Below are positions 1 to 46,866 of a stretch of 47,144 nucleotides of DNA, piece by piece (position 1 is the stretch's first letter; each line of letters opens with the position of its first letter). The DNA lies in IMG/VR virus record IMGVR_UViG_3300045988_159385, positions 1 through 47,144 of that record; one strand, given 5' to 3'. The stretch comes from a virus. Below the pieces are notes generated by a model. The model did not search any database and was not told the origin of the DNA. It saw nothing but the letters and a program-made list of their open reading frames with translations. The position numbers and the translations under genes were made by a program.

Positions 1-577
1 CCCAAGTATAAAGTTTCATTAAATCTTCTTTAAATTCTTCAATTGCTTTTTCAGCTATTTCTTGCGATGTAAAATATATATTATTAGATTGATATGCAAA
101 ACTGACATCAATTGTTAATTCATTATATTTATGGTCAAATGCAATAAAATATTTTTTAGAATCATTATGCCAATTAATAGCTTTTGCATTATGTTCCCAA
201 GCAAATCTGTCCAACTTTCTCATTACATTCTCTTTAAAAGCAATATATTCAGTATAATTTTTATTATTAAAATAATTAGCAATATTCAATTGTTCATTAT
301 CTGTATCATCATTCATATTATAAATTTTAACGCACTTACCGTTCACTATACAATAATAATCCGCTTCGCATCCAACCTGTTTATACGGGTTATTAAATGC
401 TGCTTCTTTAACTTCTTCAAATTCCATTTCTAATAAATCAGCTATTGGAGTACGTAAATCTTTTAGATAAGTATTAGTTTCAACATCTAATAAATCACCA
501 TATTTTACTTTAAATATGGTATTATCACACTTATATCTCTTTCCATTTGTTTGTAAATCTAATTCTGTTATTTTCAT
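1..577 (-). CDS. Conserved hypothetical protein, paralog A (about 195 aa). Its 3' end runs off the left edge and finishes at 47102-47144 if the molecule is circular.
   Basis: Minus-strand ORF with ATG at 575-577 and SD GGAGAA at 583-589. Translation MKITELDLQTNGKRYKCDN...AEKAIEEFKEDLMKLYTW is paralogous to ORF 6505..7077. The last about 95 nt are nearly identical to 6517-6610. Confidence 0.6.
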   Translation of the reverse strand, partial: MKITELDLQTNGKRYKCDNTIFKVKYGDLLDVETNTYLKDLRTPIADLLEMEFEEVKEAAFNNPYKQVGCEADYYCIVNGKCVKIYNMNDDTDNEQLNIANYFNNKNYTEYIAFKENVMRKLDRFAWEHNAKAINWHNDSKKYFIAFDHKYNELTIDVSFAYQSNNIYFTSQEIAEKAIEEFKEDLMKLYTW

Positions 578-850: not shown

Positions 851-881
851 TATCACTCTCTCCTAACTCGCAATATATTCA

Positions 882-1109
882 TTACTCATCCATATTCAAA
901 TAATGATCCAAGCATTCTTTACAATCTCTGAACCTTCTACAATTTTTGATTATCTTATTCTCGCTAAATGGTATATCTTTATTTGCTTCAAATTCGCAAG
1001 GAGAAACGCCATTGTGCAATGCCCATTCTTTTACTGCTAATTCGGTATTTCCAATTTCTTCGATATCATTAGCTATTAACTCCCATTTCTTCACTTTTAA
1101 TTCCTCCAC
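882..1109 (-). CDS. Small Cys-containing hypothetical protein (75 aa)
   Basis: ORF with Cys cluster CRRFRDCKEC. Conserved upstream motif at 1113-1140. Confidence 0.4.
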   Translation of the reverse strand: MEELKVKKWELIANDIEEIGNTELAVKEWALHNGVSPCEFEANKDIPFSENKIIKNCRRFRDCKECLDHYLNMDE

Positions 1110-1339
1110 TAACTTCGCACTAATTTCAAATTATTAGTTACCCCCAAATAATATCCCTGCTCTTTTATTTGTTTCCAAAGTTTGGCATTAAACACAATTG
1201 TTTTCTTATCCTCTACACCAAAACTTATCCAAGTTGCAGTAACTTTAACAAACTCTTTATCAGAAAATTGTTTGAACCATTCAGTAGTATAAGGCTTTTC
1301 TTCGTGAACTTCTTTTAAATATGCTTTTACTATATTCAT
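1109..1339 (-). CDS. Hypothetical protein (76 aa)
   Basis: ORF in the dense minus-strand early array. Confidence 0.4.
   Translation of the reverse strand: MNIVKAYLKEVHEEKPYTTEWFKQFSDKEFVKVTATWISFGVEDKKTIVFNAKLWKQIKEQGYYLGVTNNLKLVRS
1113..1140 (-). promoter_or_regulatory. Conserved upstream motif copy (palindromic class AATAATTTCAAATTATT)
   Basis: CTTCGCACTAATTTCAAATTATTAGTTA immediately 5' of the start of gene 882..1109. Confidence 0.5.
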
Positions 1340-1393
1340 TTAATTATCTCCTATAAATCTCGCAATATATTTGTATTTTTAATGAATTGTTCA

Positions 1394-1642
1394 CTACTTA
1401 CTCATAATATTAATTGCTATTTCCAATCCTTTCAAAATACCTTCATTCCCGATGTTATGTTCATCATCTACATTCTCATATTCCCATTTCTTTTGTTCAT
1501 AATAGCCTTTAAGTTTTACCAAACTATCAGTTTCCCTATATTCACAATCAGTTAAATCTCTTAATCCTTTATTGGTTTTTCTTTTATTGCACCAACCATT
1601 ATTGTTATAAGTGCATTTAGTACATAATCTTTCTTTACTCAT
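1394..1642 (-). CDS. Cys-rich zinc-ribbon-like hypothetical protein (82 aa)
   Basis: ORF with CTKC...C...C pattern. Conserved motif at 1660-1690 immediately upstream. Confidence 0.45.
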   Translation of the reverse strand: MSKERLCTKCTYNNNGWCNKRKTNKGLRDLTDCEYRETDSLVKLKGYYEQKKWEYENVDDEHNIGNEGILKGLEIAINIMSK

Positions 1643-1659
1643 TATTCTACCTCCAACTA

Positions 1660-1690
1660 CTTCGCAATAATTTCAAATTATTCATTATTT
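1660..1690 (-). promoter_or_regulatory. Conserved upstream motif copy
   Basis: CTTCGCAATAATTTCAAATTATTCATTA. Confidence 0.5.
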
Positions 1691-1712
1691 GTTAAAATAC
1701 TTGTTTTAATTT

Positions 1713-1889
1713 ATTACTTATTGCCACTTTCCATTTCATCCATCTTTGTTATCAATCTATCCAATGTCATATCTATTATCTTATATGGATCAGCAAATTT
1801 AGTTGGCTTCTTACAGATTGATTCTTTATTAATATCTTTTGTTTTTATTAAACAGTTTTTAAACTCTTTCCAATTATTCTCGTAATTCA
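1713..1889 (-). CDS. Small hypothetical protein (58 aa, MNYENNWKEFKNC...)
   Basis: ORF below the 60-aa cutoff of the supplied track. ATG at 1887-1889 with a purine-rich SD. Confidence 0.3.
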
Positions 1890-1913
1890 TAATTAATATC
1901 TTCTTCCCCCTGC

Positions 1914-2126
1914 TTATTCATCAAAAGTATGGTGTCCATCTGATATATCTCCTTTGTCATATTCTTTAAAAACATATTTATTAGGTTTTTTATTAAATAT
2001 ATCAAACCATTTTTCTTTACCACATTTTAAACATTTATATTTAGCCTCTTTGCTAAACCCTCCATTATATAAACGAACAGTATTTTCATTCATTTTCCAT
2101 TCATGTCTGCAAAATAATTTCATCAA
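1914..2126 (-). CDS. Zinc-ribbon mini-protein (70 aa)
   Basis: Paired CxxC pattern: CRHEW...CLKCGKE. Confidence 0.45.
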   Translation of the reverse strand: MMKLFCRHEWKMNENTVRLYNGGFSKEAKYKCLKCGKEKWFDIFNKKPNKYVFKEYDKGDISDGHHTFDE

Positions 2127-2162
2127 AATCCTCCTAAACTGTTTATTTTAATTAAACTTTAA

Positions 2163-2351
2163 TTATATATCCACTCCTTGTTTTTCTGCTTCAGCCAAAA
2201 GTCTATCAGCAACTTTCTTGTAAACCATCATTATTTCCTCAAACTCTTCTTCTGTTAATAATCTTCCTAAATCTCTTGTGATTTCAAGTAAATCTCTTTG
2301 TTTCACAATATCTATCGTTTTATAATTAACTTTTATATTTTCTTCTTTCAT
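2163..2351 (-). CDS. Hypothetical protein (about 62 aa)
   Basis: ORF; the SD-supported ATG is at 2349-2351 (AAGGAGAAtagtATG). A 45-nt intergenic repeat lies at 2352-2398. Confidence 0.4.
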   Translation of the reverse strand: MKEENIKVNYKTIDIVKQRDLLEITRDLGRLLTEEEFEEIMMVYKKVADRLLAEAEKQGVDI

Positions 2352-2400
2352 ACTATTCTCCTTAAAATATTTTTTCATTTCACAATATATTTGAATTGCG
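2352..2400 (-). promoter_or_regulatory. Conserved motif copy within a 45-nt intergenic repeat
   Basis: CTCCTTAAAATATTTTTTCATTTCACAATATATTTGAATTGCGAA, nearly identical to 2703-2748. Confidence 0.55.
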
Positions 2401-2402
2401 AA

Positions 2403-2693
2403 TTAATTTATAATTTCATTTTTCAAAACTTTAATTACTCCATCTTTAATTGTATAAGTTATCCTAACACTATGGTCTTTTCCATTTGACCAATTAATTG
2501 CTACAAAAACACCTTTATAAATCTTTTTTAGTTCTTTAAAATATTTATATTTTTTACTAATACAAGCCTTACAGATAACTCTTGCTAAATATGTTTTACT
2601 ATTTCTTCTTGCAATTCCCGTAAAATGCTGATTAAAAAAATTAGCACGCTCGCTTATTATTTTCTTTCTTTTCTTAATTTGTCTTTTATTCAC
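2403..2693 (-). CDS. Basic hypothetical protein (96 aa), possibly nucleic-acid binding
   Basis: GTG start with GGAGG SD. N-terminus is Lys/Arg-rich. Confidence 0.4.
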   Translation of the reverse strand: MNKRQIKKRKKIISERANFFNQHFTGIARRNSKTYLARVICKACISKKYKYFKELKKIYKGVFVAINWSNGKDHSVRITYTIKDGVIKVLKNEIIN

Positions 2694-2702
2694 TTCTCTA
2701 CC

Positions 2703-2748
2703 TCCTTAAAATATTTTTCATTTCACAATATATTTGAATTGTTCGTTA
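2703..2748 (-). promoter_or_regulatory. Conserved motif copy within a 45-nt intergenic repeat
   Basis: CTCCTTAAAATATTTTTCATTTCACAATATATTTGAATTGTTCG. Confidence 0.55.
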
Positions 2749-2940
2749 TTCTATTTTACCTCTAAAGTAATTTATTTCTTCACAATAAGGGCATTTACAT
2801 ACTATAGTAGGTACTTTAAGTTCTTTATCTTCAACCGTATACTTAACATCTTTTTCTAATATTGTTATTCCAGTAACAAGATTTATTTCTCCAAGATATT
2901 CATCACATTCACAATATAATTCTCTAACTTTATCTAACAT
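2746..2940 (-). CDS. Zinc-ribbon mini-protein (64 aa)
   Basis: CECDEY...CKCPYCEE motif. Confidence 0.45.
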   Translation of the reverse strand: MLDKVRELYCECDEYLGEINLVTGITILEKDVKYTVEDKELKVPTIVCKCPYCEEINYFRGKIE

Positions 2941-2960
2941 TCAAATCACCTTTTCACTTG

Positions 2961-2985
2961 CTTCGCATTTTATTCAAATTGTTTA
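2961..2985 (-). promoter_or_regulatory. Conserved motif copy
   Basis: CTTCGCATTTTATTCAAATTGTTTA. Confidence 0.45.
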
Positions 2986-2994
2986 TTAAAATAG

Positions 2995-3168
2995 TTATTT
3001 TATTCTAACTATTGCTCTTATAGTTTCTTTACTTTCTTTACGAATACAATGTACAATCTTTTCAATTGTAAATTTATCAACCCTACCAGTCCTATATACT
3101 TTACGAACTTCAATATCTAAATTTTCATCAAATTCACTAAGCTCTCTTATTAAGTCTTTTATTTTCAT
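2995..3168 (-). CDS. Small hypothetical protein (57 aa, MKIKDLIRELSEFDEN...)
   Basis: ORF below the track cutoff. Conserved motif at 3186-3210 upstream. Confidence 0.3.
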   Translation of the reverse strand: MKIKDLIRELSEFDENLDIEVRKVYRTGRVDKFTIEKIVHCIRKESKETIRAIVRIK

Positions 3169-3185
3169 TTTCTATATCCAACTCC

Positions 3186-3210
3186 TTGCAATATTTTTGA
3201 ATTATTCGTT
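3186..3210 (-). promoter_or_regulatory. Conserved motif copy
   Basis: TTGCAATATTTTTGAATTATTCGTT. Confidence 0.45.
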
Positions 3211-3382
3211 AAAGTTTTTCAGTACAATAAGTTACTTCAACGTGTCTAAATATTTTAAATTCTTTACCACATTCATAACATTCAAAAGTTTCAAAGTCAG
3301 CAAACTCCCAACTATCACTAAACTCATATCCACAATGAGGACAAAACACTTCATCAGTATAACTGCAATTAATTTTACTCAT
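3209..3382 (-). CDS. Zinc-ribbon mini-protein (57 aa, MSKINCSYTDEVFCPHCGYEF...CYECGKEF)
   Basis: ORF with AGGAGGaaaataaaATG. This replaces the antisense plus-strand ORF 3197..3454. Confidence 0.5.
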   Translation of the reverse strand: MSKINCSYTDEVFCPHCGYEFSDSWEFADFETFECYECGKEFKIFRHVEVTYCTEKL

Positions 3383-3399
3383 TTTATTTTCCTCCTTTA

Positions 3400-3428
3400 C
3401 TTCACAATAATTTCAAATTATTTGTTAC
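3400..3428 (-). promoter_or_regulatory. Conserved motif copy
   Basis: CTTCACAATAATTTCAAATTATTTGTTAC. Confidence 0.5.
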
Positions 3429-3550
3429 TTAAAAATTCTAATAATAGTTTCTAAAACACCTAACCATTCAAGTTCGAAGTTATTAACCTTTATTGAAAAG
3501 CCACTCAATGCTATTAATATAATTGCTATCCACATCAAAACTTTATTCAT
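3425..3550 (-). CDS. 41-aa hydrophobic peptide
   Basis: Short ORF MNKVLMWIAIILIALSGF... with GAGGTG SD. Confidence 0.25.
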   Translation of the reverse strand: MNKVLMWIAIILIALSGFSIKVNNFELEWLGVLETIIRIFK

Positions 3551-3686
3551 ATTTACACCTCATTTATTTAGCATTAATTTAATATTCTTCATCATCTTCG
3601 TCATTCCAAAAAGGACATTCATCATTTTCTTCGCAATCATCTAAGTAAGGACAATTACTACAACTAATCATTTTATCCTCCCTTTC

Positions 3687-3713
3687 CTTGCAATATATTT
3701 GAATTGTGAACTG
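3687..3713 (-). promoter_or_regulatory. Conserved motif copy
   Basis: CTTGCAATATATTTGAATTGTGAACTG. Confidence 0.5.
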
Positions 3714-3886
3714 TTTAATGTAAAAACTTTGAACCTTCTGCAAACATTTTTAAACTTAATAAACCGTTATTTTTGTATTTATTTATAGCCATTTCTAAAT
3801 ATTTATTAGGTATTTTGTGGTGTTAGTATAAAGTAGTGGACACAGTAAATCGAACTAAGTAAAATAATATTTAGTTAAGAAAGGAT

Positions 3887-4168
3887 GTGTCCATTATGGG
3901 AAAGGGCAGAAGATACGATCAAGAATATAAAGATATGATAGTAGAATTATTTAAGTCAGGAATGAGCTTAGCAGAGCTAAGTAGCGAATATGGCATTGCA
4001 AAATCAACAATTAACGGCTGGATTAAAGATGTAAAAGAAATTAAAGTAGATGAAAATGAAGTTATGACATTAAAGGAAGTTAAGGCTTTAAAAAAAGAAA
4101 TGGCAAGAATTAAAGAGGAAAATGAAATATTAAAAAAAGCTATGGCCATATTTGCAACAAGAAATTAG
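3887..4168 (+). CDS. IS3-family transposase OrfA (HTH, leucine-zipper-like C-terminus)
   Basis: 93 aa, MSIMGKGRRYDQEYKDMIVELFKSGMSLAELSSEYGIAKSTINGWIK. Confidence 0.8.
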   Translation: MSIMGKGRRYDQEYKDMIVELFKSGMSLAELSSEYGIAKSTINGWIKDVKEIKVDENEVMTLKEVKALKKEMARIKEENEILKKAMAIFATRN

Positions 4169-4221
4169 ATGAATTAATAGAATTTATAAATAGCAATAAA
4201 AACAAACATGATATTAAGACT

Positions 4222-5043
4222 ATGTGTACCGTTCTAGGCGTAGCCAGAAGCACATATTATAAATCTTTTGATAAAACTAAATCTGCAAGAGAACTAGAAA
4301 ATGAGGAATTAAAATCAGCTATTAAAAGGATATATAAAGAGAATAAAGGCATATATGGTGCTCCTAGGATTCATCATATACTTGGTATAGAAGGATTCAA
4401 TGTATCATTGAAGCGAGTTCAAAGACGAATGACTGAACTTGGCCTTTGTGCAGTAACTGTAAAAAAATACAAACCTCATTCAAGTAAAAAGGTAGCAGAA
4501 GATTTAGAAAACGTTTTGAAAAGAGATTTTACTACTACTTCTATTAACGAAAAATGGGTAGGAGATATTACATATATTTATACTATCAAAGATGGTTGGT
4601 GCTATTTAGCTTCAGTTCTAGACTTATATTCTAAAAAAATAATTGGCTATGCTTTCGATCAGAGAATGACTAATGATTTAGTTGTTAAAGCCTTAAAAAA
4701 TGCTTATTACAGCCAATCTCCCGATAAGAATAAGCAATTAATATTTCATAGCGATTTAGGCTCTCAATACACTAGCAATGATTTAAGGGAGCTATGCAAA
4801 GAGTTTAATATTATACAATCGTTTAGTAAAAAAGGTTGTCCATATGATAATGCTTGTATAGAATCTTTTCATTCATTAATAAAAAAGGAAGAAATATATA
4901 GAAATACATACCGTACCTTCGAAGAAGCTAATATGGCTATTTTTAAATATATTGAAGGTTGGTATAACAGAAAAAGGCTACACTCTTCTATTAATTACAT
5001 GACTCCAGATCAATGTGAATTATTAGCTAGAAGTGCAGCATAA
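4222..5043 (+). CDS. IS3-family transposase OrfB (DDE integrase core), probably made as an OrfAB fusion by a -1 frameshift
   Basis: Frame 1 is open from 4126 through the slippery site. Contains the HSDLGSQYTS motif and is a 273-aa DDE domain. Confidence 0.8.
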   Translation: MCTVLGVARSTYYKSFDKTKSARELENEELKSAIKRIYKENKGIYGAPRIHHILGIEGFNVSLKRVQRRMTELGLCAVTVKKYKPHSSKKVAEDLENVLKRDFTTTSINEKWVGDITYIYTIKDGWCYLASVLDLYSKKIIGYAFDQRMTNDLVVKALKNAYYSQSPDKNKQLIFHSDLGSQYTSNDLRELCKEFNIIQSFSKKGCPYDNACIESFHSLIKKEEIYRNTYRTFEEANMAIFKYIEGWYNRKRLHSSINYMTPDQCELLARSAA

Positions 5044-5204
5044 AAAAGTTTGACTTTTTGTGTCCAAAATATTGACATAAGACCATTGTTAATTAACTCA
5101 GCAGCTTCATCTACACTCAATTCAGTTTCATTGCTTAATGTTAATATAAATCCGTGTTTGTCTATAAACTTCATTTAAAAACCTCCTATCAAATAAATAA
5201 TAAA

Positions 5205-5381
5205 TTATTCTTTAATTGCTTTTTGAAAATCTATTTCTAAATCTTCTATATACCAATTTTCTATTTTATTATCTTCACTTATAGTAACAGCCATTGTTTT
5301 TCCTGCTTCTCTAATAAAATCTACTATATACATATCAAATGCAGGTTCATAATTAAAAAGTTTAATAACCTTTAATTTCAT
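5205..5381 (-). CDS. Small hypothetical protein (58 aa, MKLKVIKLFNYEPAFDMYIVDF...)
   Basis: ORF with GGAGGT SD; below the track cutoff. Confidence 0.35.
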   Translation of the reverse strand: MKLKVIKLFNYEPAFDMYIVDFIREAGKTMAVTISEDNKIENWYIEDLEIDFQKAIKE

Positions 5382-5385
5382 CACT

Positions 5386-5694
5386 CTATAACCTCCATTT
5401 ATTTCGCAATATATTCAGCGCATTCTTGAAATAATTCTTTGATACTGATTGCTCTTCATCTTTTTGATCTAAATATTCATTCAGAGTTATTGGCACAATT
5501 AATTTTTCATCTATTTTAAATTTAGTTGCTATTATTCTTCTTCCTTCTCTAACAAATTTTTTATATTTATTTTTTGGAATGTTATAAGTTGTATAATGTA
5601 CTTTAACGCAACTATAAACCTCTGTTGGGTCGCCATATTTATCTTGTCCACACCCTGCTGATTTTTCTATTCTATAACATAGTCTAATTTTCAT
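5386..5694 (-). CDS. Hypothetical protein (102 aa)
   Basis: ORF in the array. Confidence 0.4.
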   Translation of the reverse strand: MKIRLCYRIEKSAGCGQDKYGDPTEVYSCVKVHYTTYNIPKNKYKKFVREGRRIIATKFKIDEKLIVPITLNEYLDQKDEEQSVSKNYFKNALNILRNKWRL

Positions 5695-5735
5695 ATTCGT
5701 CCCCTATTTACTTTGTAATATTAATGAATTGTGAA

Positions 5736-5912
5736 CTAATCTAAATCTCTACCATTAAGAAAATCACCTTTCTTTTCCCAATAATAAAATCTAGTTGTTT
5801 TCTTTGTAGGCTCACCTAAAGCAAGTAGTACTGTAGGTGGTATTGTATATATTTGTTTTAATCCTATTTTAAATCTAGTCCAATTTTCCTTATTTTTAGT
5901 AAATAAAGTCAT
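5736..5912 (-). CDS. Small hypothetical protein (about 58 aa)
   Basis: ORF; start is ambiguous between TTG at 5918 and ATG at 5912. Confidence 0.3.
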   Translation of the reverse strand: MTLFTKNKENWTRFKIGLKQIYTIPPTVLLALGEPTKKTTRFYYWEKKGDFLNGRDLD

Positions 5913-5930
5913 TTCCAATTCTTTTCACTC

Positions 5931-5955
5931 CTTCGCATTTATTTCATTACTTTGC
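5931..5955 (-). promoter_or_regulatory. Conserved motif copy (degenerate)
   Basis: CTTCGCATTTATTTCATTACTTTGC. Confidence 0.35.
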
Positions 5956-6117
5956 CAACCCACTTCCACCACAATATTCACATTTCACTTTTGTATCTAC
6001 ACCCCTAATAGAACCTCCGCCTATTACCGCTGAACTCTGCATAGCCTTTAATTTTCCACTTCCTAAACAGTAGGAGCATATATTGATCTCTTTTAATGGC
6101 TCAATCTTAATTTCCAT
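5947..6117 (-). CDS. Zinc-ribbon mini-protein (56 aa, ...CSYCLGSG...CEYCGGSG)
   Basis: ORF below the track cutoff with GAGGTGA SD. Confidence 0.4.
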   Translation of the reverse strand: MEIKIEPLKEINICSYCLGSGKLKAMQSSAVIGGGSIRGVDTKVKCEYCGGSGLAK

Positions 6118-6123
6118 TTTCAC

Positions 6124-6150
6124 CTCACAATATAATCAAATTATTCTTAA
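6124..6150 (-). promoter_or_regulatory. Conserved motif copy
   Basis: CTCACAATATAATCAAATTATTCTTAA. Confidence 0.45.
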
Positions 6151-6176
6151 CATTTTATTTTCTTAGCCCAATTAAT

Positions 6177-6515
6177 TTAAATCCACTCTACCTCATCTAT
6201 TTCAATATTCTTATTACAATATGGACATTCTATTACTGTTCCACCCCAATCTCCTGGACACTCGCTTGGCATTAAACACTCAAAACCACTATATTCCATT
6301 TCTATGTCATAAAAACAGTGTGGACATTCAATTTTAACCTCAACTGGGCTTTGAATGATTCTTACATCTGATGGAAGTAATCTTTCTCCATAGTTATCGC
6401 ACTTTCTACAATGCCTTTCTCTACATGAATAATTTTCAATATTCTTGTAGTAAGGACACTCCTTACAAATATCTATATCATGTACCATTACTCTTTCTCC
6501 TCTGCTAAACATCAA
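6177..6515 (-). CDS. Cys-rich multi-CxxC protein (112 aa)
   Basis: At least four CxxC pairs. A degenerate copy of its C-terminus lies on the plus strand at 18844-18897. Confidence 0.5.
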   Translation of the reverse strand: MMFSRGERVMVHDIDICKECPYYKNIENYSCRERHCRKCDNYGERLLPSDVRIIQSPVEVKIECPHCFYDIEMEYSGFECLMPSECPGDWGGTVIECPYCNKNIEIDEVEWI

Positions 6516-7077
6516 ACTCCCAAGTATAAAGTTTCATTAAATCTTCTTTAAATTCTTCAATTGCTTTTTCAGCGACTTCTCTTGATGTAAAATATACATT
6601 GTTAGATTGATATGAACAACTCCAGACAATTATTAATTCATTATGCTTATTTGAAAATTTAATATAATATTTTTCAGAACAACTATCATTCCAATTTATA
6701 ACTGTTTCATTATTCTCCCAAGCGAATCTGTCCATTCTTCTCATTAAAGTTTCTTTAAAGGCAATATATTCAGCATATTCTTTATTGTTGAAATAATTCG
6801 CTGCTGAAAATAGTTCATTATCAAATTCAAAATTGTTATCTGTATCTGAATGAGTCCTGAATCCAAATATGGAATAATACCTTTCTCTATCATTTACTCT
6901 TGTGTAAGGGTTTTTCGCTTCTTTAATTTCCTCAAATTCCATTTCTAATAGTTCAGCCATACTAAAATTTCTTGTTGCAGCTATTAAATTACCTTCTTCT
7001 ACTTCAAAGACTTCATTCATATCTTTGCAAAAATATTTTTTACCATCTTCTTTAAAATCTATATCTATTATTTTCAT
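6505..7077 (-). CDS. Conserved hypothetical protein, paralog B (190 aa)
   Basis: Paralog of the gene at 1-577; the 3'-terminal about 95 nt are nearly identical. Confidence 0.55.
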   Translation of the reverse strand: MKIIDIDFKEDGKKYFCKDMNEVFEVEEGNLIAATRNFSMAELLEMEFEEIKEAKNPYTRVNDRERYYSIFGFRTHSDTDNNFEFDNELFSAANYFNNKEYAEYIAFKETLMRRMDRFAWENNETVINWNDSCSEKYYIKFSNKHNELIIVWSCSYQSNNVYFTSREVAEKAIEEFKEDLMKLYTWEFDV

Positions 7078-7549: not shown

Positions 7550-7831
7550 TTAAAAAATATTATTATGTATTATTCTGTCTATGTACTCATTTTTAAAATC
7601 TATCGTTTCTTGTAAATTCTCTTTTTCTATAGTTAAATCTAAAATTTCATCTTCAAGCTGTTCGTAAGTCTTTTCATCGTTTAACTCTTTTAATTCATCA
7701 TGCAACTCTTCTATTAGCTCGTATGAAACTTTTAATTTTATTTCTGTTTCTAGCCCGTAAAAGCAAATGTAAAACTCTCCTGCTAACTCTTCTATCTCAG
7801 CCTTTAAAGCATCTACTTTAATATTTAACAT
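7550..7831 (-). CDS. Hypothetical acidic coiled-coil protein (93 aa)
   Basis: ORF between ERF-associated genes and ssb. Confidence 0.4.
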   Translation of the reverse strand: MLNIKVDALKAEIEELAGEFYICFYGLETEIKLKVSYELIEELHDELKELNDEKTYEQLEDEILDLTIEKENLQETIDFKNEYIDRIIHNNIF

Positions 7832-8712
7832 TTACCTTGCCCTACCACTTCTACATCATAGGCATCACAATCCAAGAAGTTTTTTAACCTTTTTAAGTTA
7901 TCTTTACTTGCTGAAACTTTCAACTTAACAAAAAATTTCTTTTCATTTTCATTTATTTCTTCGCTCTGTTCAGCCTTTAAAGATGTAGATTTGCCATGTT
8001 CTGTTTCTGGGACTAACGCTGGTGCTTCTGCTTGCTTTATTTTATTAGCTTGTCCTTTTACAAGTGTCATTATCTTATCTACAGTCCAGCCTCCTTCTAC
8101 AAAATCGCTAAACTCTGAATAAGTTAATTTAGTATTTAACTCTGAATTTTCTTGCTCTATCTGTTTCATGACCGCAGCTTTAAGTATTTCCTTTTCTTTT
8201 TCTTCCGCTTCTTGCAATGCTTTTATATTAGATATTTTAAAATCTATTTCTTCTTTAATACTTTTTATAGAGTTTGTAAGATTTATTTTAATATCATGAA
8301 TGCTAATATTTTTTCTGAATTTTTCATTGATATTATTTTCTTCTAGTTGCTTATTTAAATAATCTAATGCCAGTAATACTTTTTCTTGCCTTCTTTCTTC
8401 ATCAAATTTTGCAATGCCTTCTTTTATTGGCTTTTCTACTTCTACTATTAAAGACAGTAATTCTTTGCACTCTTCTTCAAACTTTTTGATAGGCTCTTGC
8501 AACTTAGACTTAGTTTCTTTTCTATAACTATCTACTTTATTTCTTAGTCCAGCCAACTCTTTTTGAGTTGCTTTGCAATCCTTTAAAGTTTCTTCAGATA
8601 CTAGAAGTCCTCTATATTTTTCTAAACTAAATTTTAAATTTTCTCTAACTTCTGTAAAGTTTGTTTCTATGTTTGCTTGTTTAGCCTGTACTTTTAATTC
8701 TTGCATTACCAT
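7825..8712 (-). CDS. Coiled-coil protein (295 aa), probably recombination-associated
   Basis: Long heptad-rich ORF directly downstream of erf. Confidence 0.4.
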   Translation of the reverse strand: MVMQELKVQAKQANIETNFTEVRENLKFSLEKYRGLLVSEETLKDCKATQKELAGLRNKVDSYRKETKSKLQEPIKKFEEECKELLSLIVEVEKPIKEGIAKFDEERRQEKVLLALDYLNKQLEENNINEKFRKNISIHDIKINLTNSIKSIKEEIDFKISNIKALQEAEEKEKEILKAAVMKQIEQENSELNTKLTYSEFSDFVEGGWTVDKIMTLVKGQANKIKQAEAPALVPETEHGKSTSLKAEQSEEINENEKKFFVKLKVSASKDNLKRLKNFLDCDAYDVEVVGQGKC

Positions 8713-9329
8713 ACTGCCTCACTCTCATTAAAACCATTTAAATCTTTTGCTATATCTGCTTTTTTCTTGTCTAGCATTGCCATTGCTTCTGCAAATTGAC
8801 CTTCTTTCATTTCTTCAACTTTACTGGCATTAAAATAATTTAAGAATTTTGCCATATCTGTTTTAGTTTCTTCTATAGCTTTCTTAATAATTACTGCTTT
8901 TACTTGAGTTATTTTAGACTTAGCGATTTCTGCTTCTTCATCTACATTCCCAGCATCTATTAAATCATTTTCTGCTATTTCAAATGCCATTATGTACAGA
9001 TATCTTCTAGCGTAAGACTGTGTAGCTCCTATATTCTGCATTGCCGCAGCACTTTTCAAAGTTGCGATTTGCACTGGTGTGCTGAATGTTTCATTCTCAG
9101 ATGGATCTTCTGTGTTAACTACTACTAGATGTGCATAATCTTCGTTGAAGTTAAAAATTGTAGAAAGCCCATTTTCATAACACAATGCGTTAATTGCTGG
9201 TAAAAAATCTTGTAATTCGAAATAAGTGTGGTTCGAAAATTTATTAACTCCACTTTTCTTTAAATTTTTTTTCTGTAGTTCTACTCTTACCTTCTGCAAC
9301 TTAGCATATAAATTAAGCTTCTCACTCAT
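8706..9329 (-). CDS. ERF-family single-strand annealing protein
   Basis: NKFSNHTYFELQDFLP and GATQSYARRYLYIMAFEI recall the P22 Erf motifs KYKYRSCEDIL and GATSSYARKY. Sits in the classic ERF-SSB arrangement. Confidence 0.65.
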   Translation of the reverse strand: MSEKLNLYAKLQKVRVELQKKNLKKSGVNKFSNHTYFELQDFLPAINALCYENGLSTIFNFNEDYAHLVVVNTEDPSENETFSTPVQIATLKSAAAMQNIGATQSYARRYLYIMAFEIAENDLIDAGNVDEEAEIAKSKITQVKAVIIKKAIEETKTDMAKFLNYFNASKVEEMKEGQFAEAMAMLDKKKADIAKDLNGFNESEAVW

Positions 9330-10325: not shown

Positions 10326-10362
10326 AATAGTATAATATATCTAATTTTGTCTACTGTCAAGA
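10326..10362 (-). promoter_or_regulatory. Early (lytic-direction) promoter
   Basis: On the minus strand: TTGACA (complement of 10353-10358), a 17-nt spacer, then TATTAT (complement of 10330-10335). Confidence 0.45.
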
Positions 10363-10451: not shown

Positions 10452-10832
10452 TTGAACAAAAGATTGAAAGAGTTAAGAAAAACACTTGGTCTAACTCAGC
10501 AACAATTTGCAAATGATATAGGGCTAGGAAAGTCCAGTATAGGCAATATCGAAAATGGGATCATTAACTTGACTGATAGGAATATTAGTGTTATATGTTC
10601 CAAATACAACGTTAACGAGCGATGGCTTAGGACTGGAGAAGGAGAAAAGTTCGCAGAACTTAACGTAGATGAAGAAATAACATTTATGTTAGGTGCTTTA
10701 CTTGCAGAAAATTGTTCGCAAAAAAAAGAGTTTATTAAGCTAATGTTATCTTTAGATAACGAAGATGATTGGAAGATTATTTCCGATTTGGCGGAAGGAC
10801 TCAAAAGAAAGAATGAAAAAAGCAGAGATTAA
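10452..10832 (+). CDS. CI-like XRE-family HTH repressor (about 126 aa from TTG start)
   Basis: HTH LGLTQQQFANDIGLGKSSIGNIENG. GAGGTG SD 6 nt before TTG at 10452. No S24 peptidase domain is visible. Confidence 0.65.
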   Translation: MNKRLKELRKTLGLTQQQFANDIGLGKSSIGNIENGIINLTDRNISVICSKYNVNERWLRTGEGEKFAELNVDEEITFMLGALLAENCSQKKEFIKLMLSLDNEDDWKIISDLAEGLKRKNEKSRD

Positions 10833-10847
10833 TCTCTGCTTTTTTTG
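10821..10847 (+). terminator. Intrinsic terminator
   Basis: Perfect 20-nt palindrome AGCAGAGATTAATCTCTGCT followed by TTTTTTT. Confidence 0.7.
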
Positions 10848-11126
10848 TTATTAATATAGCCGCAAATAAATAGATCTAAAAGTTTAAATAACTTCTCATC
10901 ATCAATTTTTTCCAAACGCTCTAGTACATTTTTCTTTTTTGTCATAACTTTTCCCCTTTTACAAATATTCGTCAATATTATACCACATCTTCGAACATTT
11001 GTTCATTTTTTATTTATTTCGTTATAAGTATAAGATAATTTTGCCATTCGTGTCATGAATATTTCCGACACAAAAGGACAAAATATATTATAATAACGTC
11101 TATTTTTGTCGAAAGAGGTGTTATAT

Positions 11127-11496: not shown

Positions 11497-11793
11497 ATGA
11501 AAGATTTAAATACAAAGCTTGTTATTCTTAGAAAAGAACACGGTTATACTCAAGAAGACCTTTCTAAATTTTTAAACCTAACTAGATCAGCAATTGGCAA
11601 TTATGAATTAGGCATTAACGAGCCTTCCTTGGATACAATGGTAGCTATAGCAAACCTGTATGGAGTATCCCTTGATTGGCTTATGGGCAGAACTGATCTA
11701 AGATATAATTTTAACTTAGAAAACAAAGAAAATACCGAAGTTATAATAAAGCTTTATGAAACTTTAAAAGATTTTGACATCACAAAGAGATAG
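11497..11793 (+). CDS. XRE-family HTH regulator (98 aa)
   Basis: HTH YTQEDLSKFLNLTRSAIGNYELG with AAGGAGG SD. Confidence 0.65.
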   Translation: MKDLNTKLVILRKEHGYTQEDLSKFLNLTRSAIGNYELGINEPSLDTMVAIANLYGVSLDWLMGRTDLRYNFNLENKENTEVIIKLYETLKDFDITKR

Positions 11794-14144: not shown

Positions 14145-15122
14145 ATGAAAAAATACGTTTTAAGTGCTGATATTGGTAAGTACGAAACAGAAATTACAGG
14201 TAGAGATTTAGAAGGAACAAAAGAAGATATTAAGACAGTTGCTTTAAGAACTAAGATGTATGATTTAAGCAATGGATATATCGAAGTTGAAGGAGATAGC
14301 TATGTAGTTGAATTTGACGGAAAAGAGTTTATTGTTGGAGAACAAGGTCAATCAAAAAGTGACGATACTACAAAAACTCAATTCTTACACCAGTTAGCTT
14401 GTTACACTGCAATTACTAAATTTTTAGAAGCAGGAAGTAAAGACAATAAAATATTCATGACTTTAGCTTGTCCTTTAAGTGTATTAAGTATACAGGAAGC
14501 AAAAGAAGAATATAAAAACTTCATAAAAGGTGATGGGCCTATTAAAATGAAGGTTGATGGTAAAGAATATGAGTTTACTATTGAGGACATAACTATAAAG
14601 GCTGAAGGTGCTGGAATAATATACTTAGAACCAAACTTATTTAAAGATAAATCTGTTGCTATAGTAGACCTTGGTGGTTTAAATATGGGATTCAGTTTAT
14701 ATATTAATAAAGTATGTAAAAAAGAATATAGATTTATAGAAGAGTGTGGAACTGATAGATTACTTGATTTAGTTAGAGAACAACTTTCTATATATAAGAA
14801 AGGAAACCTTGTAGATAAAGATATTTCAGAAAAAGCTTTAAATGAAGGTGGCTTAAAGAAATCAGGTAAACTTGATCTTGACAGTGTAGACTTCATAGAA
14901 ACTGCAAAAGAAAATTACTTTAAGGAAGTTATGGGTTATATAAAGGCGCATAAATTTGATGTAGAAACACTTGATGCTATTGTATTCGTTGGAGGTACTT
15001 CTCAACATATTAAAACTAATATAGTGACTTCATTAGAACACGCTTATGTTCCAAGTAATTCTCAATACTGTACCGTTGAAGGCAATTATAAAGTTGCTAT
15101 TAAAAAATATGGAAACATTTAA
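14145..15122 (+). CDS. parM: Actin-like segregation ATPase (ParM/Alp family)
   Basis: N-terminal phosphate-1 motif LSADIGKYETE and VDLGGLNMGF motif. 325 aa, followed by a small RHH gene. Confidence 0.65.
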   Translation: MKKYVLSADIGKYETEITGRDLEGTKEDIKTVALRTKMYDLSNGYIEVEGDSYVVEFDGKEFIVGEQGQSKSDDTTKTQFLHQLACYTAITKFLEAGSKDNKIFMTLACPLSVLSIQEAKEEYKNFIKGDGPIKMKVDGKEYEFTIEDITIKAEGAGIIYLEPNLFKDKSVAIVDLGGLNMGFSLYINKVCKKEYRFIEECGTDRLLDLVREQLSIYKKGNLVDKDISEKALNEGGLKKSGKLDLDSVDFIETAKENYFKEVMGYIKAHKFDVETLDAIVFVGGTSQHIKTNIVTSLEHAYVPSNSQYCTVEGNYKVAIKKYGNI

Positions 15123-15136
15123 GGAAAGGTGATTAA

Positions 15137-15508
15137 ATGCCAAGCATTGATAAAGTTGGTGGAGGAATAACAATAACTTTTGCCCCTAAAAATGATGATG
15201 TTAGGGAGATATTAGTAGAGTTAAAGAAAAGTAAAAAGGTTAAATTAACCGATTATATTTGTGAAGCTATAAGATTTTATGAAGCTAATAAAGATAAAAT
15301 GAATAATGATAAAGGTGATTTAGCTGAAATAATAAAAGAAGAAGTTTCAAAGCAAGTAAAATCTGAAATTGAAAAAATAGAAGTTTCAAAACAAATAAAA
15401 GATGAAATTGAAAAAATATTAGAAGAAAAGAAATTAACTTTAATTGAGAATGTATCTGTATCATTGGAAGATGATTTGGAAGATGTGGATATAACTGAAG
15501 ATGGTTAA
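15137..15508 (+). CDS. parR: ParR-like ribbon-helix-helix centromere-binding adaptor
   Basis: N-terminus ITITFAPKNDDVREILVELKK...LTDYICEAIRFY has a beta-alpha-alpha pattern, followed by an acidic coiled tail. Confidence 0.5.
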   Translation: MPSIDKVGGGITITFAPKNDDVREILVELKKSKKVKLTDYICEAIRFYEANKDKMNNDKGDLAEIIKEEVSKQVKSEIEKIEVSKQIKDEIEKILEEKKLTLIENVSVSLEDDLEDVDITEDG

Positions 15509-15524
15509 TGCCAAGGAGGAATTT

Positions 15525-16241
15525 ATGGAATCAGGAATTTACAAAATAGTTTGCATCCCAAATCAAATGGTTTATATAGGGCAATCTATAGATGTATCGA
15601 ATCGTTGGAAGCAACATTTAAATGATTTAAGAAGCAATAAACATTGCAATAAAGGATTACAAGAAGACTTTTTAAAATATGGAGAGATAAATTTTGAATT
15701 TTCAATAGTAGCTACTTGCGAAGCTAGTGTATTAGATTTATTAGAATTACATTATATTGATAAGTATAAAAAAAATAATCAATCTTATAATATAAAAACA
15801 AGCGAGAGTGGTAGACATAAAGAAAGAGTGCAATTAACTCCAGAGGAATATAAGAAAATAGTTAAGTTTAAAGAATCTGATACAATAGACGATGAAACTA
15901 TAAAAACATTGTTGGCAATGGCAAAAATGTTTTATTTAAATGGATTTGCCAGAAAAGAGTGTATTGCATTTGACTATAATTCCAACTCAATTAAAAAAGT
16001 TGTTTTCGCAGGGACACCTTGCGATGATAATTTGATGGCAATAAGAAAATGTATTTCTTTAGCTTTACTTTATATAATGTATTATGTAAATGAGTATATT
16101 TCAGAAAAGTATTCATATATGAATGAAATAGTAAAAACAAAGGTTTTATATAAAAACCTTCCATCTGAATACGGGAAATTAACGTTAAATTGTAAAGTTA
16201 TAAAAACTGGTGAACAATTTAAAAAAACTTTATACTTTTAA
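15525..16241 (+). CDS. GIY-YIG homing-type endonuclease
   Basis: SGIYKIVCIPNQMVYIGQS...R...H...N motif. AAGGAGG SD before ATG at 15525. Confidence 0.7.
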   Translation: MESGIYKIVCIPNQMVYIGQSIDVSNRWKQHLNDLRSNKHCNKGLQEDFLKYGEINFEFSIVATCEASVLDLLELHYIDKYKKNNQSYNIKTSESGRHKERVQLTPEEYKKIVKFKESDTIDDETIKTLLAMAKMFYLNGFARKECIAFDYNSNSIKKVVFAGTPCDDNLMAIRKCISLALLYIMYYVNEYISEKYSYMNEIVKTKVLYKNLPSEYGKLTLNCKVIKTGEQFKKTLYF

Positions 16242-18082: not shown

Positions 18083-18117
18083 GTAAACATAAAAAGTTAA
18101 AGGTATACTTTTTTACT

Positions 18118-18144
18118 GAACAATTTGATTATATTGCGAAGGAG
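18118..18144 (+). promoter_or_regulatory. Conserved motif copy (plus orientation)
   Basis: TGAACAATTTGATTATATTGCGAAGGA directly before the SD and ATG of gene 18154. Confidence 0.5.
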
Positions 18145-18153
18145 TAAAAAGTT

Positions 18154-18387
18154 ATGAGGAAATATAAATGTATAAATGAAATGATGATAGAAGTTGTTGA
18201 TGGAGATGGAGCAATTATTTACAACGAATATAATTTTATAGAAAAGGGAAGTATGTGGGAATTAGATGATTCTGACTTTAGAGTGTGTGATGGAGAAGTT
18301 AGGTTATTAAATTTTGAAGATGGTATATATAGTTGGATTGAAATGCCTTATGAAGATTTAGAAAAACATTTTGAAGAGTTATTATAA
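18154..18387 (+). CDS. Acidic hypothetical protein (77 aa)
   Basis: AAGGAG SD. A plus-orientation copy of the conserved motif lies at 18118-18144. Confidence 0.45.
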   Translation: MRKYKCINEMMIEVVDGDGAIIYNEYNFIEKGSMWELDDSDFRVCDGEVRLLNFEDGIYSWIEMPYEDLEKHFEELL

Positions 18388-18413
18388 CGAACAATTTAAT
18401 TTGCATTACGAAG
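18388..18413 (+). promoter_or_regulatory. Conserved motif copy (plus orientation)
   Basis: CGAACAATTTAATTTGCATTACGAAG before gene 18430. Confidence 0.45.
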
Positions 18414-18429: not shown

Positions 18430-18804
18430 ATGAGAAAATCACAAGTAGTTAGAATGAATAAAATCAATGAATTAATCGAAGTTATAGCTAATACAGATAG
18501 AAGGTTTTTTTATCACAAAAGTAAAGAGAGTATTGATAAATTCATAGAAGGTAAAACAACAGTATTTTTCTATGATGTTTATTTAGATAAAAAAATAAGC
18601 TTAACATATAAAAATAGACATAATTTTAGTCATGGTGGCACTCTTTGGGGATTAGTTAATGATTTTAAAGAGTGGATAATAACTGGAAAACCTTCAAATG
18701 GTTCAAATGGATATGGCGGAGTTTATTGTCCTCATTGGGGATATAGCGAAGAAGGTCAATTAAAAGTTATAGAAAAAGCAAAAGAAATTGGATTTATAAA
18801 ATAG
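18430..18804 (+). CDS. Hypothetical protein (124 aa)
   Basis: GGAGGGG SD; motif copy at 18388-18413. Confidence 0.45.
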   Translation: MRKSQVVRMNKINELIEVIANTDRRFFYHKSKESIDKFIEGKTTVFFYDVYLDKKISLTYKNRHNFSHGGTLWGLVNDFKEWIITGKPSNGSNGYGGVYCPHWGYSEEGQLKVIEKAKEIGFIK

Positions 18805-18828
18805 TTCACAATTCAAATACTTGTAAGA
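18804..18828 (+). promoter_or_regulatory. Conserved motif copy (plus orientation) before the pseudogene
   Basis: GTTCACAATTCAAATACTTGTAAGA. Confidence 0.45.
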
Positions 18829-18897
18829 TGGAGGAAGAGTAATAGATTGCCCGAACTGCGAAAAAGAAATTGAAATTGATGAGGTGGAGTGGATTTA
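18828..18897 (+). pseudogene. Remnant of a Cys-rich mini-gene (3' end only)
   Basis: A motif copy (18804-18828) and GGAGG precede it, but the start codon is lost. IDCPNCEKEIEIDEVEWI* matches the C-terminus IECPYCNKNIEIDEVEWI* of ORF 6177..6515. Confidence 0.5.
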
Positions 18898-18984
18898 ATG
18901 GTATCAGTATTAGAAACTAAAAAGAAAGCTAAGAAGCACTAAAGTAAAAAGAAATTTGAGATATAAATAATAATGTTTATATAA

Positions 18985-40761: not shown

Positions 40762-40945
40762 TCTTTATCACCTCACTTTTGTGGATAAATAAAAAAGACA
40801 CTTGAACTTAATCAAATGCCTTTTCTCTACAATACTATTTTACTATGTAATTTAAATGTAAACTCGACTTCTTATTGATTTAAAACTGCTATCTTATATA
40901 TAAAAAAAGTTTAAAAAATATGCTTAAAGTTCAATATAAAAAAGA

Positions 40946-41236
40946 GGTTACACAAAGGTTACACTTTTGGTTACACTTTTGATTACACTTTTGTAACCTC
41001 TGAAACCCTTGATATATCTAGCTTGAGAGAGTTTTTTCTACAAGGTTACACTTTTTGTGAAAATAATGTGTGCATCTTTTTATTTTATTATAATATTTTT
41101 TCTTCTATATATAATATAATATTTTTTTTACTGTAACTTTGTAACCTTATATATATAAACGGCTCAACCATGCGGTTCACACAGGTTACACTTTTGGTTA
41201 CACTTTTGCAATGAAACTGTAACTTTGTAACCTTTT
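40946..41236. repeat. Iteron-like array of GGTTACACTTTTG and GTAACTTTGTAACC flanking an AT-rich core
   Basis: Four tandem copies at 40946-40995, one at 41043-41057, two at 41185-41209, and CTGTAACTTTGTAACC at 41131-41146 and 41219-41234. The AT-rich stretch is 41075-41130. Confidence 0.6.
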
Positions 41237-41414
41237 ATTCTTTGATAACTTATATATCTGCTCACTTGAAAATAATATTTTGCTCATAACTAATTCATCT
41301 CATAAACTTATTGTACAAAAAAGAACCTATATAGACAGACTCTCTCTTATAAGTGCCTATCTTATAGGTTCCATTTTAAAATATTGGCTTCCCCTTATTT
41401 TTTATATTTGAACA

Positions 41415-45995: not shown

Positions 45996-46280
45996 TTATT
46001 TTATTTGTTTTAGAAATTGTGAATTATGTGGAACAAGAACACTTTCACCACATTTGATACAAGTAAATCTATGTCCTTGTATAGTTCCTACATTTATGTC
46101 ATTTATGTGGTGCATATCAGCCCCACACCTCCAACATGGAATAGGTTCAAATTTTTTATTGTCACAATCAAACATAGCATAGCTATTAGTTGCATTAGTA
46201 TCTGAATAATTCTCTTCTGCTCTAAAACAACTTTTTCTTTCTTCACATTCTTTATTGATACAAAACGTTATGTCTTTCAT
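45996..46280 (-). CDS. Zinc-binding mini-protein (94 aa)
   Basis: Multiple CxxC pairs. Confidence 0.45.
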   Translation of the reverse strand: MKDITFCINKECEERKSCFRAEENYSDTNATNSYAMFDCDNKKFEPIPCWRCGADMHHINDINVGTIQGHRFTCIKCGESVLVPHNSQFLKQIK

Positions 46281-46321
46281 ATTAATATCCTTCTTTTTTT
46301 GAAATGTTTTTGAATTATTCG

Positions 46322-46615
46322 TTATTCCTTTATGTTGAAATTCATATCCCCACTGCCATCCATTTCAACTGTCATAGTTGCACATTTTTCATCATCTCTT
46401 CTTTTAGAAAATATCTTATTTGCTAAGTCAACCATTTCTAATAAAATTTTAGCATTGTTGTAATCTGCTTCTGTTAATAGTGTTTCCCCACACTTAGGAC
46501 ACTTTACATTAACCCACTTTTCATAGTCCTTAGCATCTATACTCATATCTACATAATCACACGTTGGATTATCACATTTTAATCCACCCATATTAATTTC
46601 TAAAGCATTTTTCAT
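46322..46615 (-). CDS. Zinc-ribbon protein (97 aa)
   Basis: CDNPTC...CPKCGE with GGAGGA SD. Confidence 0.45.
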   Translation of the reverse strand: MKNALEINMGGLKCDNPTCDYVDMSIDAKDYEKWVNVKCPKCGETLLTEADYNNAKILLEMVDLANKIFSKRRDDEKCATMTVEMDGSGDMNFNIKE

Positions 46616-46646
46616 CTTTAAATCCTCCTGTATACTTTGTAATATA

Positions 46647-46820
46647 TTTAAACTATGCTGTTATTTTTCTTTCTTTTTATTAAAGCATTTTCAGAACCAA
46701 AAATGCTTATGAAACCATTTTTCTCTAAAACTTTAATATCTCTATCTTCGCTTATTTCTATAACCTTACCAACTGCACCAGTTATTTTACTCTGAACTTC
46801 ATCTCCTAAATTAATTTCCA
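46647..46820 (-). CDS. Small hypothetical protein (57 aa, MEINLGDEVQSKITGAVGKV...)
   Basis: AGGTGA SD; below the track cutoff. Confidence 0.35.
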
Positions 46821-46837
46821 TAATTCACCTATATTTA

Positions 46838-46866
46838 ACTTGCAATATACTTGAATTGTTCGCTAC
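46838..46866 (-). promoter_or_regulatory. Conserved motif copy
   Basis: CTTGCAATATACTTGAATTGTTCGCTACT. Confidence 0.5.

Follow-up and report, generated by a model that had tools for sequence, protein, structure and literature searches.

The closest described counterparts of the element reported here are the promoter-early stem-loops (PeSLs) of T4-type phages and the start-associated sequences (SAS) and extended start-associated sequences (ESAS) of Cluster K mycobacteriophages. PeSLs consist of strong promoters resembling those of sigma-70, joined to terminator stem-loops (PMC2839356). SAS are 13-bp sequences, GGGATAGGAGCCC, that contain the Shine-Dalgarno (SD) sequence and lie 3-7 bp before the start codon, and ESAS are 17-bp imperfect inverted repeats with a variable spacer, a subcluster-specific consensus and no RNA-type covariation (PMC3203893). 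The element studied here is a 25-nt motif, joined to a stop codon, that is reiterated in front of small early genes of a virus genome, IMG/VR record IMGVR_UViG_3300045988_159385, positions 1 to 47,144 (hereafter the window, meaning the whole stretch of 47,144 nt that was analysed). A literature search found SAS/ESAS and PeSLs and no description of this motif.

Like PeSLs (PMC2839356, PMC4122927), the copies are short conserved repeats between small non-essential open reading frames (ORFs) of a hyperplastic early region, and the boundaries of indels and replacements between close relatives fall at the repeats. In contrast to PeSLs, the motif includes neither a sigma-70-like early promoter nor a terminator stem-loop, so that it lacks both of their defining features, and it lies inside an operon, abutting the upstream stop codon. 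The likeness to PeSLs proposed in an earlier note on this DNA therefore stands for gene shuffling and falls for the promoter and for the terminator or stem-loop half. With SAS/ESAS the motif shares its place just upstream of the starts of unrelated small genes, its asymmetry, its single orientation, its restriction to the non-structural half of the genome, and the occasional imperfect inverted repeats without RNA-type covariation. It differs from them in sequence and in being a unit of 25-31 nt that lies 4-29 nt from the start codon and is locked to the upstream stop; its arms are 8 bp long with a fixed 8-bp spacer, and the same consensus recurs across unrelated backbones.

Three further systems were compared. 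Integron attC sites are 57-141 nt long, contain R''/L''/L'/R' boxes, fold single-stranded and are recombined by IntI at a fixed point. Arrays of attC sites resemble the present locus in their promoterless, co-oriented small ORFs, each with an imperfect inverted repeat at its stop codon. However, the unit described here is only 25-31 nt long, its crossover point is variable, and no recombinase or integrase family was found among the part of the window ORFs, about 50, that was screened with Pfam, PHROGs or NCBIfam. In lambdoid phages, the modular theory of Susskind and Botstein, and the work of Clark et al. on HK620, reportedly describe scattered pairwise linker homologies between modules. These linker or boundary sequences are likewise short, conserved and placed at gene boundaries as footholds for homologous module exchange, whereas here one and the same 25-nt consensus is repeated about 20 times in each genome. 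Stoperators are 13-bp sites, identical to the operator of the early lytic promoter and spread genome-wide. Those of L5 and other Cluster A mycobacteriophages (named in PMC3203893) also occur in many copies in short intergenic gaps, oriented with transcription. Unlike them, the motif is absent from the genetic switch and from the late genes, and the stoperator test failed because the motif is absent from the early-promoter operator. On the best reading, the motif is PeSL-like in effect and SAS/ESAS-like in position.

Anatomy of the repeated unit

The motif was searched for with a position weight matrix (PWM) built from its copies, which replaced the literal consensus. In the window, 16 full copies scored at least 21 bits (15 on the minus strand, one on the plus strand), and the next best site scored 9 bits. 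None of 100 dinucleotide shuffles reached 20 bits, and the repeat pointed out in the earlier note is real and well above chance. The literal 25-mer given there did not hold, as only one site lies within 3 mismatches of it. The true consensus is more degenerate and reads, in gene direction, TAR-nGAAYAATTYRAAWWATATTGYGAAG, a stop codon (TAR) followed by the 25-mer. Five relics or indel variants accompany the full copies. Fourteen of the 16 places listed before are full copies, while nothing but the right half (..ATGCGAAG/ATATATTGCGAG) remains at 868-890 and 5931-5955; two full and three degenerate copies had been overlooked, three of these five on the plus strand. Outside the arrays, no PWM match above 9 bits was found in the window. 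Whole-genome k-mer enrichment, also tried as a motif finder, was dominated by coding repeats and uninformative. The copies, listed in the direction of array transcription and followed by those on the plus strand, are:

6123-6147, minus strand: full copy, first of the array, 26.1 bits, upstream of gene 5947-6117, with the SD within the motif 3' end
5931-5955, minus strand: relic, right half AAATGCGAAG only, -3.7 bits, upstream of gene 5736-5918
5711-5735, minus strand: full copy, 22.7 bits, upstream of gene 5386-5694
5402-5426, minus strand: right-half relic (right half at 5402-5412), newly found, 8.8 bits, upstream of gene 5205-5381
3686-3710, minus strand: full copy, 29.6 bits, upstream of gene 3579-3672
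3400-3424, minus strand: full copy of the palindromic AATAATTTGAAATTATT class, 23.6 bits, upstream of gene 3209-3382
3184-3208, minus strand: full copy, 29.9 bits, upstream of gene 2995-3168
2961-2985, minus strand: full copy, 25.2 bits, upstream of gene 2746-2940
2721-2745, minus strand: full copy, 29.3 bits, upstream of gene 2403-2693
2378-2402, minus strand: full copy with 8+8 palindromic arms, 24.2 bits (17.9 bits on the plus strand), upstream of gene 2163-2351
1660-1684, minus strand: full copy of the palindromic class, 28.6 bits, upstream of gene 1394-1642
1358-1393, minus strand: split copy, left half 1383-1393 and right half 1358-1371 with a 10-11 nt insert, two overlapping PWM matches of 22.7 and 17.8 bits, upstream of gene 1109-1339
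1113-1137, minus strand: full copy, 25.0 bits, upstream of gene 882-1094; the upstream ORF reads through the motif and stops at +26
866-890, minus strand: relic, right half ATATATTGCGAG, -4 bits, upstream of gene 662-850
47059-47083, minus strand: full copy, 26.7 bits, upstream of gene 46863-47042
46838-46862, minus strand: full copy, 27.8 bits, upstream of gene 46648-46821
46635-46659, minus strand: full copy, newly found, 21.6 bits, upstream of gene 46322-46615
46297-46321, minus strand: full copy, last of the array, right arm degenerate, 21.1 bits, upstream of gene 45996-46280
18117-18141, plus strand: full copy with the top score, newly found, 31.7 bits, upstream of plus-strand gene 18154-18387
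18389-18413, plus strand: indel variant, newly found, read from the sequence (-2.5 bits owing to the indel), upstream of plus-strand gene 18430-18804
18805-18829, plus strand: degenerate copy or indel variant, newly found, with a C-terminal remnant of a 6177-6515 paralogue after it

Each copy has the orientation of its downstream gene, including those on the plus strand at 18.1-18.8 kb. Apart from the latter, the copies lie within one contiguous array of 24 small ORFs that runs from 6515 to 1, over the circular junction, and from 47116 to 45996. The array is part of a long early operon and is flanked by the genes for the single-stranded-DNA-binding protein SSB and a 190-aa protein on one side and by ERCC4 and primase genes on the other; its ORFs are ORFans, several of them zinc ribbons. 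A full copy precedes 15 of the 24 array genes and a relic three more, the remainder having none, so that the earlier statement of a copy before nearly every mini-gene is true of most of the array and not of all of it.

The anatomy of the unit was derived from 60 non-redundant instances from the window and its relatives, and the doublet at positions 10-11 was counted in 89 unique instances. Conservation forms one unbroken stretch, -3 to +28, while positions -20 to -4 are uninformative, and T19, G20, G22, A23, A6 and T8 are near-invariant. It is the upstream gene to which the unit is most closely tied. In 44/60 instances a stop triplet lies at -3 to -1; the upstream ORF actually ends on it in 32 of 57 cases, while 17 ORFs end earlier and only 7 enter the motif. 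TAR is kept at -3 even where another stop is used (12/28 cases, against a background of 11%). From the motif 3' end to the start codon the distance ranges from 4 to 29 nt (mode 16-17), and GAAG at the motif end continues as GAAGGAG in many copies, overlapping the SD. Thus the distance to the ATG, previously taken to be constant, is variable, and it is the upstream stop at -3 to -1 that is nearly fixed instead. The dyad symmetry noted before is confirmed for the inner inverted repeat CAAT-N8-ATTG, which is 87-100% complementary and almost always intact. It is not confirmed for the outer arms TTCR/YGAA, which pair in 25-60% of copies, no better than column shuffles; full 8+8 arms (TTCRCAAT/ATTGYGAA) are present in about a third of copies. 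Positions 10-11 read TG in 40, CA in 42, TA in 7 and CG in 0 instances (Fisher 2e-18), a pattern that the PWM does not impose. A second strand-symmetric doublet, GA/TC, occupies positions 2-3.

Cassette-sized exchange among relatives

An exact-pattern scan found the unit of stop, motif, SD and start on at least 13 IMG/VR contigs, usually several times per locus and co-oriented, and contigs assigned to Clostridium sp. CAG:221, to C. cuniculi and to Clostridium sp. D53t1 have it too. The consensus is identical across phage backbones, and weaker copies are still present in a prophage that is integrated, encodes a serine integrase and differs in its replication and terminase genes. The window and the motif phages of unrelated backbone have in common the 190-aa ORFan, a 112-aa ORFan and a 38%-identical RinA-like protein. 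The motif is absent from the deposited phages and plasmids of INPHARED and PLSDB: when the array, two consensus forms of the motif and the late region were used as queries, no relatives were returned, only chance short matches and an insertion sequence (IS) element. A 64-nt match in Enterococcus phage RG1 lies inside a methyltransferase gene and was rejected as chance. The motif belongs to a phage group without a cultured or deposited member.

High-identity homology between the window array and its relatives comes in single-cassette blocks bounded by motifs. The shuffling of gene content between copies that the earlier note anticipated is seen as whole-cassette differences, with boundaries and crossovers in the motif. 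One 57-aa protein (2995-3168) is found unchanged on 12 contigs, where its upstream neighbour is one of four different genes, the homology beginning at the motif, right after the stop codon, and a cassette starting TTGACAATTGAACAGG follows the motif in four contexts behind four different upstream genes. Cassette 2403-2693 is missing in six relatives exactly between two motif-plus-leader repeats; copies 2721 and 2378 form the 40-45 nt direct repeat that flanks it. In relative L084, the cassette 3425-3550 is joined to the cassette 45996-46280 at TAA|CGAAT (stop codon|46297 copy), and a homologue of the plus-strand gene 18154-18387 resides in the main array. Relative L029 carries a chimeric motif, its left half corresponding to the 5711 copy and its right half to the 3184 copy. 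The relic at 5931-5955 is the start of homology blocks shared with L016 and L029. Altogether, 12/26 block ends (redundant ends merged) fall in motif units, which cover 8.9% of the array (P = 7e-7), a figure that is an upper bound on the effect because BLAST alignments extend through any conserved motif. The position of the crossover within the unit differs between junctions, which argues for general short-homology recombination rather than a site-specific enzyme. In these alignments, the motif marks points of single-gene exchange between phages.

A remnant of a cassette was seen at 18805-18900, where the degenerate plus-strand copy is followed by ..CPNCEKEIEIDEVEWI*, the C-terminus of a paralogue of the zinc-ribbon gene 6177-6515. 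It is the scar of a past cassette rearrangement.

The exact-pattern scan also matched chromosomal sites in Clostridium (C. hydrogenum, C. guangxiense, C. drakei and others). These belong to a separate repeat of about 200 nt, and the resemblance is regarded as chance given the size of the scan; the right arm common to the phage motif and the chromosomal repeat is likewise probably fortuitous. The repeat itself was observed at seven loci of C. hydrogenum, C. guangxiense and C. neuense, where it starts with AATAATTTAAAATTATTGCGAAGTAAG and ends with the inverted CTTACTTCGCAAT. It is non-coding, contains several CTAAG motifs, does not lie beside rRNA genes and looks like a miniature inverted-repeat transposable element.

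Competing explanations of the motif

We favour, with moderate confidence, the explanation that the motif is an untranslated linker, or junction, which joins mini-gene cassettes lacking promoters within a long early operon and is used for short-homology shuffling. Two features outside the array enter this model:

10332-10360, minus strand: predicted early promoter TTGACA-17-TATTAT, consensus match 11/12
8706-9329, minus strand: ERF-family single-strand annealing protein (Pfam ERF, 1.8e-12)

The unit would comprise the stop codon, the 25-mer, and the SD and start of the next gene. Cassettes would have no promoters of their own and would be read through from the predicted promoter at 10332-10360, at which transcription of the array probably starts; between this promoter and the array no terminator-like sites were found, except for one weak site inside the SSB gene. 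The same 30-45 nt is found, directly repeated, at most junctions and recurs in many different Clostridium phages; short-homology recombination between copies would therefore delete, insert or swap single cassettes while leaving the flanking ORFs undamaged. The enzymes may be the phage ERF or RecT proteins acting with SSB, or the host RecA, the ERF-family protein of the window being a candidate enzyme for short-homology exchange; the single-strand annealing proteins and SSB encoded nearby provide supporting context. The unit may double as a leader for ribosome initiation, and would be kept out of reading frames. ORFs ending at or before it would survive exchanges intact. The pile-up of stops at -3 would be expected because ORFs that end at the unit are safe from exchange damage, together with genome compaction. 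Similarly, the uniform sequence would be expected because cassettes with common-consensus junctions move most easily, so that the consensus stays uniform across backbones.

Several observations weigh against this explanation. A pure linker does not explain the near-invariance of T19, G20, G22, A23, A6 and T8, and the strand-symmetric TG/CA doublet looks, from base composition at these two positions, like the trace of double-stranded DNA (dsDNA) recognition. Uninterrupted identity between the copies of one genome is only 8-14 nt unless the leader is shared, and this is a poor substrate for annealing. The block-end statistic is inflated, its ends being biased towards the motif. Finally, the predicted accessibility of the ribosome-binding site (RBS) equals that of other genes and is unchanged by motif shuffling, leaving the leader role without direct support. 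Because the junction model leaves the invariant positions and the CA/TG step unexplained, a reader of dsDNA, a reader of RNA and a non-canonical promoter each retain some probability.

More tentatively, the junction model may be extended to a universal adaptor of a recombinase-free, integron-like phage cassette system. Pooled promoterless ORFan cassettes, with the stop-leader junction of about 30 nt at both ends, would be plugged, through short-homology recombination, into early operons of Clostridium phages that are not related to one another. The cassette would be the unit of selection, the copies nearest to the consensus spreading best, and a dedicated factor stimulating exchange would be indicated by the obligatory CA/TG step.

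The strongest competitor, which we nevertheless consider unlikely, is an operator at each junction for a dimeric, sequence-specific dsDNA-binding protein of phage or host origin that silences or times the accessory genes, for example as a roadblock like stoperators, the conserved inverted repeats (CIRs) of phiC31 or ESAS; recombination would then be a by-product. The inner inverted repeat suits such a site, with half-site centres 12 bp apart, a spacing within the range for operators of helix-turn-helix (HTH) dimers, as do the full 8+8 arms in a third of copies, the position-specific conservation and the doublets TG/CA (82/89 copies, CG never) and GA/TC. The doublet could instead represent two old alleles or the product of template-switch mutation, and the arms do not covary. 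A symmetric binder also fails to explain the strict orientation lock and the near-exclusion of the motif from reading frames. Candidate regulators are available in the three XRE-family HTH genes of the window, located at a divergent-promoter switch, one of which (11497-11793) has homologues in motif-bearing relatives. Yet neither a copy nor a half-site of the motif occurs at this switch, where the repeats are TTGTC/GACAA and unlike the motif, which is restricted to the accessory array, and no obvious regulator is common to the window and the motif phages of unrelated backbone. In L013 and L079, a site resembling the motif lies close to the XRE homologue, but within a small ORF, and was set aside as chance. 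Among host regulators, with background consensus sequences as the standard, none of Rex, CRP/Fnr, CodY, Fur/PerR/Zur 7-1-7, the Spo0A 0A box, LexA/Cheo, the CcpA cre site and CsrA fits in register. Two further repeat regions were considered, the partition centromere that goes with the actin-like protein and the repeats that precede terS, and their sequences differ from the motif.

Less probable still is an element acting in the polycistronic mRNA, either the site of a translational regulator or an RNase cleavage site with a purine-rich 5' stabiliser (GYGAAG-GAG), that would set the translation or stability of each cistron. The position of the motif is in keeping with this: all copies are in the sense orientation, always 4-29 nt before a start codon, with the GAAG end merging with the SD in many of them; upstream ORFs stop at the motif edge, translation enters the motif in only 7/57 cases, and the region is AU-rich and unstructured. 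It is the distances that fit poorly, the one to SD and start being variable and the one to the upstream stop fixed, and the strict doublet is unexplained at this level because UG and CA are unrelated in RNA. Leader folding gave a mean minimum free energy of -3.0 kcal/mol (z = 0.07), and covariation between the arms was not detected, with 66.0% of cells paired compared to 66.8% in shuffles; on both counts an RNA hairpin or RNase III site was rejected. Rfam returned no match at E <= 1, so that no conserved structure or known family accompanies the motif, and no candidate RNA-binding protein was found. An RBS-opening leader was ruled out, as far as prediction goes, by the unchanged accessibility.

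The proposal of the earlier note that each mini-gene carries its own promoter-like element fared worst. In the 60 instances no conserved -35 block was found upstream of the motif. TATATT does lie 20-30 nt before the start codon in the larger subclass, as had been claimed, but TAnnnT is present at this position in only 40% of instances, the palindromic class having ATTATT without the essential A; these two results ruled out a sigma-A promoter with TATATT as its -10. With TTGYGA as the -35, next to an AT-rich UP-like region, a -10 follows at the required distance in only 0-3% of copies. Consensus scans found promoter-like sites at or below shuffle expectation, only one coinciding with the motif, and the column counts are incompatible with an extracytoplasmic-function-type GAAC-N15-CGAA and with the sigma-H, sigma-E, sigma-K, sigma-F/G and sigma-54 consensus sequences. 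The motif has no sigma-A promoter architecture, and neither terminator-like sites nor stem-loop halves were found in the array. A promoter for each mini-gene, whether of the sigma-A type or served, in the manner of T4 early promoters, by a phage-modified or otherwise alternative RNA polymerase, is thus very improbable: the chance -35 element of copy 46838-46862, and a length of 25-31 nt ending in purine-rich GYGAAG, about that of single-subunit RNA polymerase promoters, stand against two copies split by 10-13 nt inserts, an SD that would be lost from transcripts starting after TATATT where it overlaps the motif, and the lack of a recognised RNA polymerase gene among the ORFs screened, the only sigma-like gene (RinA-like) adjoining different iterons.

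Genome setting and implications

The first 28 nt of the window (1-28) are identical to the last (47117-47144); the genome is therefore circular, about 47.1 kb long, with 29.7% G+C, and its counterpart is a 47,151-bp human-gut metagenome contig (ENA ERZ28578616). Besides terminase and virion genes and the recombination-type proteins ERF, DUF1351 and SSB, it codes for a primase-helicase, an actin-like partition protein and a late regulator of the RinA/ArpU type. The window is probably a phage-plasmid of Clostridium, a status considered probable because no integrase was recognised. The stretch 14145-16241 holds, in this order, the actin-like (ALP_N) partition gene, a small ORF and a gene for a GIY-YIG endonuclease; this region, with the absence of a recognised integrase, suggests an episomal phage-plasmid lifestyle. 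In the motif-bearing relative L093, RecT and a PDDEXK nuclease (4892-6470) take the place of ERF and DUF1351 (window 7825-9329) in an otherwise syntenic architecture, a clean swap of the recombination module between early operons.

The array is interrupted by an insertion that stands outside the motif system:

3818-5085, plus strand: IS3-family insertion sequence with orfA 3887-4168 and orfB 4222-5043

The element is 91-92% identical to copies on plasmids of C. botulinum and C. butyricum and splits a mini-gene into two parts, one at about 5086-5174 and the other at about 3715-3817. The 190-aa ORFan is present as two paralogues forming direct repeats of about 570 bp, one at the array head (6505-7077) and one mid-array (47108-47144 plus 1-577); the 190-aa gene that runs off the window start ends at about 47108. 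Its family numbers 353 homologues, many on contigs of about 45 kb, with no annotation and no recognisable fold.

Two other sets of sites were observed. The non-coding region 40762-41414, between the RinA/ArpU-like gene and a terS-like gene, contains at least 8 copies of a 12-13 nt iteron, GGTTACACTTTTG, in both orientations, with tandem sets at 40951-40993 and 41178-41208. These are likely late-promoter activator sites or an ori/pac region. At 10992-11005, CGAACATTTGTTCA overlaps the -35 of a predicted extended -10 promoter (11005-10977, minus strand) of the 48-aa gene 10829-10975 and resembles the consensus of the Gram-positive LexA (Cheo) box, which suggests an SOS-controlled, antirepressor-type module beside the XRE repressor.

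Hypervariable arrays of tiny early genes are thought to hold the anti-defence and host-takeover functions of phages, and the movement of their genes is poorly understood outside the T4 group. The junction described here is defined by sequence, easy to scan for and common to hundreds of gut Clostridium phages and prophages that are uncultured and differ in backbone, and the gain, loss and swap of single genes is visible exactly at the motif. It can be used to catalogue the cassette pool and as a test bed for short-homology exchange by phage annealing proteins, and may offer a natural plug-in site for the engineering of Clostridium phages. Should the motif have a protein reader, that protein would represent a new regulator acting globally on the accessory genes.

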